Of a stretch of DNA of 64,000 nucleotides, positions 43,079 to 44,717 are shown in pieces. The position numbers were made by a program, and so were the translations under genes. Each line of letters begins with the position of its first letter. Position 1 is the stretch's first letter. The notes under the pieces are model-generated. The model was not told the origin of the DNA. It made no database searches and worked only from the letters and a program-made list of their open reading frames with translations. Source of the stretch: a virus (Duplodnaviria > Caudoviricetes); IMG/VR virus record IMGVR_UViG_3300020050_005381, positions 2,095-66,094 of that record; one strand, 5' to 3'.

Positions 43079-43157
43079 CTCATTCTCCTAAATAGGTGCC
43101 AGCAGCCGATTGACGCGATGTTTTGCGTCTTGTAGGTGGCCTATTTCGCGTTCGGCA

Positions 43158-43505
43158 TCACTGGATACGCTCAGTGCGCCCACCATGCCGCAAAACCTCG
43201 CCGTAGCTACCAATTGTCACTTGGTCGTCACAGTGCACGCGCAGCGCCTGTTTAACGGCGGTTTCGGCATTACGCATGTAGCGCTCGTGCTCATCCTGCT
43301 GCGCCTTCAGCTTCGCTTTCCACTCGCGTTCAATGTCGTCCAGCCTATCGCTCGCTGGCGGAGAGTAGAACGCCTGCCCGTAGTGTTCGTGGCCCCCCTC
43401 TACCGCCTCGGCCAAGTAGGCCAGTTGCTCGGGCGTCAGCTTCAGTTCGCACTCTTCCGCTGCGATGCTGATGCACTCTTGCCAGTAGTCTTGTTGTGCG
43501 CTCAT
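43158..43505 (-). CDS. Hypothetical protein (left of attC-2)
   Basis: GGAGG RBS 25 nt from the attC-2 boundary; 115 aa. Confidence 0.65.
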   Translation of the reverse strand: MSAQQDYWQECISIAAEECELKLTPEQLAYLAEAVEGGHEHYGQAFYSPPASDRLDDIEREWKAKLKAQQDEHERYMRNAETAVKQALRVHCDDQVTIGSYGEVLRHGGRTERIQ

Positions 43506-43529
43506 CCAGTCCTCCTTCGTTGCGGTTAT

Positions 43530-43618
43530 GCCTAACACGGCGGTCAACGCGACCGGCCGCAAGCATCGTCCTTGTTCAATCGCCAGTGCTGGCCGGCGCG
43601 TTAGCTAGTGCGTTATAC
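43530..43618 (+). mobile_element. attC: Integron attC recombination site (attC-2, 89 bp)
   Basis: R'' GCCTAAC, 5-nt spacer, L'' GGT[C]AACG, stem with extra A52, L' CGTTAGC, 6-nt spacer, R' GTTATAC. Confidence 0.85.
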
Positions 43619-43852
43619 GTTCATGGCTCCAAGCAGCAGCGACCGTTTGTTTTCGTACGGAGCGCCGGATGGAACGTGCGGGTTTCCCCTCATGTCTGTG
43701 TATTCCGCATGCTGCTCAGGGTCGAACTCTGTCTCGCAAGCATTCCCGCCCTGGTCGTAATAGCCGCGCCCAGACTCGTGCTCCACCACAAAAACGTCTG
43801 CATCCTGGTCTTCAAATGCTTTCAGCCATTCAATCAGTTCTCGTACTTTCAT
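43613..43852 (-). CDS. Cassette-borne hypothetical protein (79 aa)
   Basis: GGAGG RBS; MKVRELIEWL...; stop codon is the TTA of the attC-2 R' core. Confidence 0.7.
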   Translation of the reverse strand: MKVRELIEWLKAFEDQDADVFVVEHESGRGYYDQGGNACETEFDPEQHAEYTDMRGNPHVPSGAPYENKRSLLLGAMNV

Positions 43853-43919
43853 CTCTTCCTCCACGTATAACTGTGCCTTCAACGGCGACCGCCCTTACGG
43901 GCGTCGCGTTAAGGCGGCG
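43613..43919 (+). mobile_element. Integron-type gene cassette, 307 bp, gene in inverted orientation
   Basis: Starts G|TTATAC and carries R'' GTATAAC, exact complements as required for a cassette. Confidence 0.8.
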
Positions 43920-43925
43920 TTAGGC
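43865..43925 (+). mobile_element. attC: Integron attC recombination site (attC-1, 61 bp)
   Basis: R'' GTATAAC, 5 nt, L'' CTT[C]AACG, stem GCGAC[C]GCCC-TTAC-GGGCGTCGC, L' CGTTAAG, 5 nt, R' GTTAGGC. Confidence 0.88.
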
Positions 43926-44500
43926 GGTAGTTTCCGCCGTGCATCGTCAGCGTGCTTTTCAAAGTCAGCGTGTCGGGTCGAGTACAGCGTATCTTTCCCC
44001 TTTGCCCACTTTTCGTGGATCGAGGTGCATACCTCCCATGCAATCGCAGCTTCCTTCCACCCATCTTGCTCGCTCTTGCTCAACGAAATTAAGTCCTCTG
44101 CGCAGCACTGATGCTCTTCGGTTTTGATGCGTAGCGCAATCTCAAGCTGCTTTATCTCTGCCTCGTTCTGTGACTGCCTTTTGTACTCGTCAAGCTGCTT
44201 AACGAGCTCGTAGTATTTGGTAATGGCATCGGCTACCGCCTTTTCTGTACCATGCTCGTATTGATAATGCCCACCATCTGCGTGGAGAACAGCAAGTAGC
44301 TCGCCAAGCATTTTTACGTACGCTTCATGCCTTGGTTTCAGCCGCTCATACTTAGCCTCAAGCGCCTTGTTCTGCTCGATCAGCTTGAGAATTACATGCA
44401 CATTTAGCGTGGTCAAATAGCTGGCAAATGCCTCTTCGTCGTCATTTTTTGACTGCATAAAAGTAAGCACAGCCTGCTTCAGCTTTTCCAAGTCAAGCAT
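43895..44500 (-). CDS. Accessory mosaic protein whose C-terminus (PPNAALTRRP) is encoded by attC-1
   Basis: Stop TAA lies in the attC-1 loop (43895-43897). Confidence 0.65.
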   Translation of the reverse strand: MLDLEKLKQAVLTFMQSKNDDEEAFASYLTTLNVHVILKLIEQNKALEAKYERLKPRHEAYVKMLGELLAVLHADGGHYQYEHGTEKAVADAITKYYELVKQLDEYKRQSQNEAEIKQLEIALRIKTEEHQCCAEDLISLSKSEQDGWKEAAIAWEVCTSIHEKWAKGKDTLYSTRHADFEKHADDARRKLPPNAALTRRP

Positions 44501-44618: not shown

Positions 44619-44717
44619 CTTACTCTCCTAAAAAGGTGCCAGCCAGCGGGTTGGGATAGGGTTGTATTCCAAGACAAACCAGTCTCAAAAGATCTAATGC
44701 TGGCTGGCGAAACAGTA

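Follow-up and report, generated by a model that had tools for sequence, protein, structure and literature searches.

We found that a 769-bp island in the genome of a Caudoviricetes virus carries two attC recombination sites and two cassette genes, and that both genes lie on the attC bottom strand. The island is located in a stretch of 64,000 nucleotides, hereafter the window, which corresponds to bases 2095-66094 of the IMG/VR record IMGVR_UViG_3300020050_005381. Integrons are bacterial gene-capture devices, in which a promoterless gene lies on the top strand of its attC site and is read from the promoter Pc. The island of the window is an attC cluster that has no integron integrase (CALIN) with two cassettes, whose structure and complementary boundaries mark them as genuine cassettes. 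It is a CALIN and not a complete integron, because the intI, attI and Pc of the latter are missing (no match to the integrase profile TIGR02249). We consider it likely that the region represents an integrase-less cluster of integron cassettes, with the genes on the attC bottom strand, in a leftward run of phage genes. Comparison with other viral and metagenomic contigs showed that the window cassettes belong to a large and diverse phage-associated population of reversed cassettes, which share their attC family with bacterial integrons.

Structure and polarity of the two attC sites

The features of the region are listed below (aa, amino acids; RBS, ribosome-binding site; GC, guanine-plus-cytosine content).

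43151-43919: island, 769 bp, two cassettes, GC 58.3% against 45-50% in the flanks
43150-43156, + strand: left junction GTTCGGC, crossover between G43150 and T43151, where phage DNA meets cassette A
43151-43612, + strand: cassette A, 462 bp, bottom-strand 115-aa gene and attC-2
43530-43618, top strand +: attC-2, 89 nt, R'' GCCTAAC (43530-36), R' GTTATAC (43612-18)
43613-43919, + strand: cassette B, 307 bp, bottom-strand 79-aa gene and attC-1, start TTATAC, own R'' GTATAAC
43865-43925, top strand +: attC-1, 61 nt, R'' GTATAAC, R' GTTAGGC (43919-25), crossover between G43919 and T43920
43158-43505, - strand: 115-aa gene (phrog_21617), RBS GAAGGAGG at 43512-19, 11 nt from attC-2 R''
43613-43852, - strand: 79-aa gene (phrog_14647), RBS GGAGG at 43858-62
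43895-44500, - strand: 201-aa coiled-coil phage gene, end ...PPNAALTRRP, stop 43895-97 in the attC-1 loop
42572-43078, - strand: 168-aa coiled-coil phage gene, following downstream as part of this leftward run

Read on the + strand, attC-2 consists of GCCTAAC, a 5-nt spacer and GGT[C]AACGCG[A]CCGGCC, followed by the partner arm GGCCGG.CGCGTT, a 9-nt spacer and GTTATAC. Its 12-bp stem joins 43546-58 to 43591-43602, and the two extrahelical bases in brackets (C43545 and A43552) are located on the 5' arm of the + strand, 6 bp apart, which is the spacing of the aadA1 attC site of plasmid R100. attC-1 has a stem of 17 bp with the loop TTAC, and each of its three extra bases, C43880, G43885 and C43890, belongs to the 5' arm of the + strand. 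At both sites the extrahelical bases are confined to one arm, and the L''/L' boxes, the unpaired spacers and the imperfect stems are typical of attC. A simple attC detector looked for AAC...GTT cores that are complementary at 5/7 positions or more, for spacers and for a bulged stem; when both strands of the 64 kb were scanned, the two highest scores went to these sites (27.1 for attC-2 and 27.0 for attC-1). In addition, a covariance model (R1) was built from 50 non-redundant attC sites of general metagenome contigs in which the flanking genes are sense. R1 matched attC-2 with 24.8 bits (E 9e-6), as its sole match in the window and on the + strand only, and with the filters off it matched attC-1 with 12.8 bits (E 0.003), also on the + strand only; on the - strand R1 gave no match at either site. 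A third R1 match on the + strand, at 43343-43421 within the 115-aa gene, was weak (7.8 bits, E 0.11) and is probably due to chance.

It is extremely unlikely that the hairpins are intergenic terminators or palindromes of the repetitive extragenic palindromic (REP) type which merely resemble attC. Their intergenic position and a fold energy only modestly better than that of shuffled DNA (z -0.6 to -2.3, with attC-1 at -2.3) would agree with such elements. However, the R1 E-values, the canonical R and L boxes with the spacing of the extra bases, and the complementary cassette ends all point to integron sites. In other phages the homologous genes end in plain T-tract terminators, and the same sites reappear, linked to other cassettes, as repeats that break assemblies.

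The + strand is the attC top strand at both sites, because the extra bases sit on its 5' arm and R1 matches this strand only. This uses the rule that in the coding strand it is the 5' arm which carries the extra bases, a rule verified on the aadA1 attC of R100 (C and A, 6 bp apart). The first-pass annotation, which was made from the sequence alone, had assigned the same polarity from the extrahelical bases, and both the checked rule and R1 bear this out. The R' of attC-2 (G/TTATAC, the slash marking the crossover) is exactly complementary to the R'' of attC-1 (GTATAAC), which is the signature of a cassette boundary for 43613-43919. This complementarity is symmetric, so that the signature alone does not settle the polarity, and both strands of each site fold into near-equivalent hairpins. 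If the - strand were the top strand, the cassettes would be ordinary sense cassettes in which the attC follows the gene. We regard such a miscalled polarity as very unlikely, although the R'/R'' complementarity fits it equally, the TAA of the 79-aa gene would then be part of a GTATAAC core, a position found in many normal cassettes, and conservation of the 115-aa gene does not extend to the body of attC-2. Judged by the rule verified on R100, the location of the extra bases, for each site the 5' arm of the + strand, argues against it, as does the exclusive + strand match of R1, a model trained on sense sites. The outer boxes of attC-1 also travel with the 79-aa gene in three other loci (L007, L008 and L009), and the opposite polarity would leave the 115-aa gene without any attC.

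Cassette genes and the insertion site

Both cassette open reading frames (ORFs) are on the bottom strand and downstream of attC, and not on the top strand upstream of attC as in a canonical cassette. In the direction of the genes the order is attC hairpin, RBS, ORF, and a stop at or in the next R' core. The first-pass annotation had described three - strand genes at the sites: a 79-aa cassette gene that stops on the TTA of R', a left gene whose RBS follows attC-2 in the reverse direction, and a right gene that runs through attC-1 (PPNAALTRRP) and stops in its loop. Each of these observations was confirmed. The three genes occupy 43158-43505, 43613-43852 and 43895-44500 on the - strand, and the stop TAA of the 79-aa gene is the reverse complement of TTA 43613-15, within the R' of attC-2. 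The RBS GAAGGAGG lies 11 nt from R'', and about nine final codons of the 201-aa gene, together with its stop at 43895-97, come from attC-1. No sigma-70-like promoter was predicted within the island. No terminator was predicted at the attC sites, and neither hairpin is followed by a U-tract.

The same cassette ends were found in other contexts. In L039, a copy of the 115-aa gene with 94% identity matches the window over 43149-43536, beginning at the GTTCGGC core and stopping where R'' ends. For the 79-aa gene, copies in L007 (93%) and in L008 and L009 (84%) match from 43610/11 to 43883, that is from R' through the R''-L'' of attC-1. The attC of L007 has kept the outer boxes, differs in the centre, and has TTATGC as its last six bases, as is expected with another neighbour. 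In four metagenome runs the contigs show breaks or divergence at 43148, 43544, 43607-15, 43867 and 43925, and their depth spikes across the two attC sites. A different attC 3' end (...CCTGAACTCAA) precedes cassette A in run X10.

The contrast in GC (58.3% against 45-50%) indicates that the island is of foreign origin. When 43151-43919 was removed in silico, the joint read CGCG/TTAGG and a 196-aa ORF ending in ...PPNAK* was obtained; the reconstructed joint of the empty site is CGCG/TTAGGCGG. The restored end ...NAK* would place the insertion 8 nt before the original stop. The joint fits GWT, the consensus that has been published for attG (Loot et al., bioRxiv 10.1101/2022.09.11.507474). We propose that an integron integrase of the host inserted the cassettes at this G/TT secondary, attG-like site at the 3' end of the 201-aa gene. 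The insertion would have replaced the last two residues of the gene product by seven residues encoded by attC-1. The geometry of the region suggests that the cassette genes have no promoter of their own and would be read by run-through of leftward phage transcription. Placed in a bacterial integron, these cassettes would run antisense to Pc and would be silent.

Another possible origin is that a block of genuine cassettes from a prophage or a bacterial attC cluster was gained by illegitimate or short-homology recombination, the GTT junctions being incidental. Such a route is unlikely, but it has been proposed for phage CALINs (Qi et al. 2023, PMC9892861) and phage genomes are mosaic. In the present genome, which is without IntI, the motif at the junctions comprises just three bases, and the left junction agrees with R'' at 6/7 positions. 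Insertion by an integrase is favoured by the position of both island ends exactly on G/TT cores, by the clean ORF end that removal of the island gives, and by the use of the same cassette ends as junctions in other contexts. Moreover, insertion at GWT by IntI supplied in trans is documented (10.1101/2022.09.11.507474).

Joints from 43152 to 43529 and from 43620 to 43862 were considered as excision products or empty sites and were set aside, since they occur in single contigs with sides of at most 45 nt. A joint from 42955/42965 to 44354, seen in single contigs of runs X10 and X14, was likewise set aside as an empty site (sides 35-45 nt). In the fusion protein that this weakly supported joint would encode, the N-terminus would come from the 201-aa protein and the C-terminal part from the 168-aa protein, and the island would be lost.

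The source record has 66,094 bp with direct terminal repeats and is rated complete in IMG/VR; the phage is a complete, virulent-type phage from wastewater. The attC region is embedded in a long run of - strand genes (leftward early/accessory genes), beyond which dTMP-kinase-like and all-alpha nucleoside triphosphate (NTP) pyrophosphatase genes were found, as well as a primase gene on the opposite strand. No tRNA gene was found. Phage relatives of the 201-aa and 168-aa flanking proteins were not found, except for one contig that ends mid-gene, and when 41-47 kb was compared with the GenBank phages at near identity, there was no match. In metagenomes, 68-97% of the sampled words of the 2-kb stretch around the attC sites were detected, in 11 studies from 2016-2025 covering activated sludge, digester, runoff, wastewater and sediment. 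An 18-nt motif, CTGGCACCTWTTTAGGAG, occurs on the - strand in exact copies at 43085-43102 and 44625-44642 (2 seen against 0.12 expected). The copies end in ribosome-binding sites, one that of the 168-aa gene and the other that of a short ORF located upstream of the 201-aa gene, and CTGGCACCTWTTTAGGAG may serve as an operator, regulatory or translational, that is specific to the phage.

Homologues and survey of cassette polarity

Next to the window itself, the homologues of the two cargo proteins were studied. The queries for the 115-aa protein covered 43158-43502, without the initial Met. This protein belongs to phrog_21617 (PHROG E 7e-46) with at least 317 homologues, and the 79-aa protein to phrog_14647 (E 2e-13) with 57 homologues; both families are of unknown function and neither protein had a match in Pfam. 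The AlphaFold2 model of the 115-aa protein (predicted local distance difference test, pLDDT, 83) has three helices and a small sheet, and that of the 79-aa protein is of low confidence. A fold search of both models, including this low-confidence one, against the PDB gave nothing at E <= 0.001. The homologues comprise hundreds of metagenomic proteins, 85 IMG/VR loci and 11 loci of bacterial genomes. The phage relatives are from Yersinia, Hafnia, Pseudomonas, Sphingobium and Stenotrophomonas phages, where T-tract terminators and not attC sites follow the genes.

R1 attC sites (E <= 0.01) were found near the homologues in 13 of the 85 viral loci, 37 sites in total, and all 37 are antisense to the homologue; the remaining 72 viral loci had none. 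Among the 11 bacterial loci, attC flanks the homologue only in L094 and L098, where it is antisense too. The homologues in bacterial genomes have prophage-like settings, such as the lambdoid nin region of L094 (NinB, NinG/Rap, ParB-like, Lar-like). It had been suggested that these cassettes come from a phage-specific pool, which would be contradicted by homologues occurring mainly in bacterial integrons in the same inverted orientation. They were instead found in phage or prophage-like loci. The 115-aa and 79-aa proteins are phage gene families of which some members are in cassette form, since attC accompanies them in only 13 of the 85 loci.

To survey polarity, an 18-nt top-strand motif (TTAGCTCRAACGTTAGGC, comprising L', spacer and R') was searched in IMG/VR and in general metagenome contigs. 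The counts are for one attC subfamily and for the first 120 stretches of each collection among the matches listed, which were at least 120 in each. Genes were called by a likelihood ratio of codon models, for which the genes of the window and R100 served as validation. GC at the third codon position (GC3) alone, which could not separate sense from shadow ORFs, and a first sense/antisense log-odds score had both failed as strand tests and were discarded.

The calls for the genes flanking attC, and the majority per locus, were as follows.

Viral contigs: 237 antisense and 11 sense flank calls; 113 antisense-majority and 3 sense-majority loci
Metagenome contigs: 37 antisense and 216 sense flank calls; 13 antisense-majority and 81 sense-majority loci

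Antisense loci thus made up 113 of the 116 scorable viral loci as compared to 13 of 94 metagenome loci (Fisher 6e-40 per locus), and gene orientation in the phage contigs is not random, as the proposal of a phage cassette pool had demanded. The viral loci represent 86 nucleotide clusters or 91 protein-sharing clusters. In the latter grouping antisense calls prevail in 84 of 87 scorable clusters and sense calls in 3, and the other 4 are tied or uncalled. The polarity of the extra bases was the same in both sets (125 vs 7 and 164 vs 2). Within 309 viral cassettes (median 450 bp, mostly with one gene), 343 calls were antisense and 27 sense. The median fraction of genes within 3 kb that share the antisense direction was 1.0 in viral contigs as compared to 0.23 in metagenome contigs.

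The strand calls were supported by Pfam matches, in the viral set to N6_N4 and C5 DNA methylases, DUF5131, an SMC-like ATPase and a small terminase, and in the metagenome set to Mrr endonucleases, DUF4062, HAD and HNH. With the same method, the cassettes of integrons next to a bona fide IntI in two metagenome-assembled genomes (MAGs; G007 and G008) were sense. Two viral loci illustrate the reversed arrays. L045, from a complete 35.9-kb virus with terminal repeats (G002), has 8 or more attC sites, in a further count at least 10 in 3.5 kb, and L019 has 6 attC sites downstream of a RecT gene; codon statistics place all genes of both antisense to the attC top strand. One cassette of L045 carries an ORF with an FtsK-gamma domain, which binds FtsK orienting polar sequences (KOPS), and Pfam confirms its antisense strand. 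The phage contigs of the survey come from sludge, freshwater and soil metagenomes. A typical viral attC had no blastn match in 50,697 phage records, and the exact 18-mer had one match only in 401 genomes of the class of G007. The claim of a phage-linked pool of reversed cassettes is supported by the viral/metagenome contrast and by the homologue loci.

The attC sites that share the 18-nt 3' motif (loci L104-L357) had a median length of 129 nt in the metagenome set (sense) and of 100 nt, with a wide range, in the viral set (antisense). In one bacterial-type sense array (L248), the sole antisense gene tested, at 929-1843 on the - strand, encodes a D12 N6-adenine DNA methyltransferase. Compared to the sense neighbours in arrays of this type, which include Mrr endonucleases and DUF4062, this methylase hints at an arrangement with defence genes sense and counter-defence genes antisense.

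The strand bias could also reflect an orientation-dependent role of the attC hairpin, such as RNA processing, attenuation or folding on the non-template strand, without any separation of pools by expression. Viral loci with a single site are antisense as well (54 vs 2), which would suit a role of the hairpin itself, and so would the shorter viral attC sites (median 100 vs 129 nt). As published attG insertion is without strand bias, some selection must act. Even so, we find a hairpin role quite improbable, for the two strands are near-equivalent as hairpins, no U-tract is present, no terminator is predicted, and expression together with polarity-preserving recombination already explain the pattern.

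Integrases were present in part of the viral contigs, with IntI-like genes in 5 of the 120 viral loci. The IntI of L161, L178 and L182 scored 425-428 bits against TIGR02249 (NCBIfam; cut-off 265). In these three loci and in L134, intI has the usual relation to attC polarity, and the cassette ORFs are reversed, towards intI. Some viral contigs thus have their own IntI, which in L161, L178 and L182 is found where the array ends downstream, and the phage cassette pool is therefore not always integrase-less. In a tree of nine IntI sequences the three viral ones group together (support 93/91), which are too few sequences for the claim of a phage branch. The IntI and array spans are 698-6400 in L161, 1489-6800 in L178 and 8588-11145 in L182, with ORFs for C5 and D12 DNA methylases and DUF5131. 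The first cassette of L161 starts with G/TTAGGC, 43 nt upstream of intI.

Several points weigh against the window being an integrase-inserted cluster of reversed cassettes, or against its generality. The TIGR02249 profile had no match in the complete 66,094-bp genome, so the phage is without IntI. The outer cores fit R'' (RYYYAAC) and R' (GTTRRRY), but GTATAAC and GTTATAC are each off the consensus at one position, and the start of cassette A (TTCGGC) agrees with its own R'' (GCCTAAC) at 6/7 positions, counting the G. In L039 a different attC body follows the common R'', which together with the differing attC centre of L007 indicates that gene and attC are no rigid unit. No island-free relative of the phage was recovered, and the empty site is a reconstruction. 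Expression of the cassette genes from phage promoters is predicted from the geometry, and the runs labelled RNA-Seq, which are probably DNA, were set aside. The survey is restricted to the subfamily and stretches given above, the virus labels of IMG/VR are automatic, and the gene caller made at least one error, placing the IntI of L239 on the wrong strand. Finally, the array of phage TJE1 has normal polarity (Qi et al. give the bottom strands on -, with orf1-3 on +), which shows that the reversed layout is not universal.

Relation to known systems and biological meaning

Clusters of attC sites and integrons in phages have already been published, with 17 CALINs in 10,705 phage genomes, and IntI1 recombined 5 of 6 tested phage attC sites (Qi et al. 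2023, PMC9892861). The island of the window resembles those phage CALINs in having attC sites and cassettes without a nearby integrase, in virulent or temperate phages, and phage-type cargo including DNA methyltransferases. The strand of the genes in relation to attC polarity is not discussed there, and the best example, TJE1, is normal. In comparison to that count, the single 18-nt motif used here led to at least 120 IMG/VR stretches, nearly all of them reversed. In full-text searches of the literature we found no description of reversed gene polarity in phage attC arrays.

The window sites share with the aadA1 attC (In2/Tn21, R100) and with IntI-linked integrons the order R''-L''-stem-L'-R', the G/TT crossover and the complementary cassette ends, and with the R100 site also the extra bases C and A, 6 bp apart. 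Top-strand genes that lie upstream of attC and are read from Pc characterize R100, G007 and G008, whereas the cassette genes of the window are on the bottom strand, downstream of attC, and without IntI, attI or Pc. Cassettes inserted at genomic attG sites (GWT) give rise to single attC sites lacking an integrase (SALINs) and to small CALINs, with no bias of strand, replication or transcription (Loot et al., bioRxiv 10.1101/2022.09.11.507474). These insertions are similar to the present one, with cassettes outside an integron at a GWT site, expressed only behind a resident promoter, and with clusters of 1-2 cassettes being common. They concern bacterial chromosomes, whereas here the target is the 3' end of a phage gene and the cargo is reversed.

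Some cassettes of the Vibrio cholerae superintegron, for example those with toxin-antitoxin genes, are reverse-oriented, with the ORF opposite to the attC top strand. Such reverse cassettes of sedentary chromosomal integrons are a minority in sense arrays and have their own promoters. In contrast to the reverse cassettes of V. cholerae, the phage arrays are wholly reversed, in line with the phage operons.

The cassette reading accounts for the GC-rich island of the window and for the altered C-terminus of the 201-aa phage gene product. Recombination between two attC sites, or between attC and attI, keeps polarity, and a phage cassette in a bacterial integron would therefore be antisense to Pc and silent. 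For the same reason a bacterial cassette, often with an anti-phage defence gene, would be equally silent in a phage array. We suggest, tentatively and with some doubt, that phages and bacteria might use one recombination system (IntI and attC) for two mirror-image cassette pools, insulated from each other by polarity. Why polarity is reversed is a matter of speculation. It may serve the insulation of the pools, or the position of the bottom strand, which is the recombinogenic one and which in the reversed layout becomes the non-template strand of phage operons with heavy transcription.

Because standard integron surveys assume sense ORFs, they would mis-annotate or overlook phage cassettes. 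Our survey suggests a cassette economy on the phage side, with at least 120 stretches for one motif, in 86 to 91 clusters. The DNA methylases that recur in phage cassettes suggest a counter-defence function, and reversed cassettes would let phages swap small early genes in a modular way.

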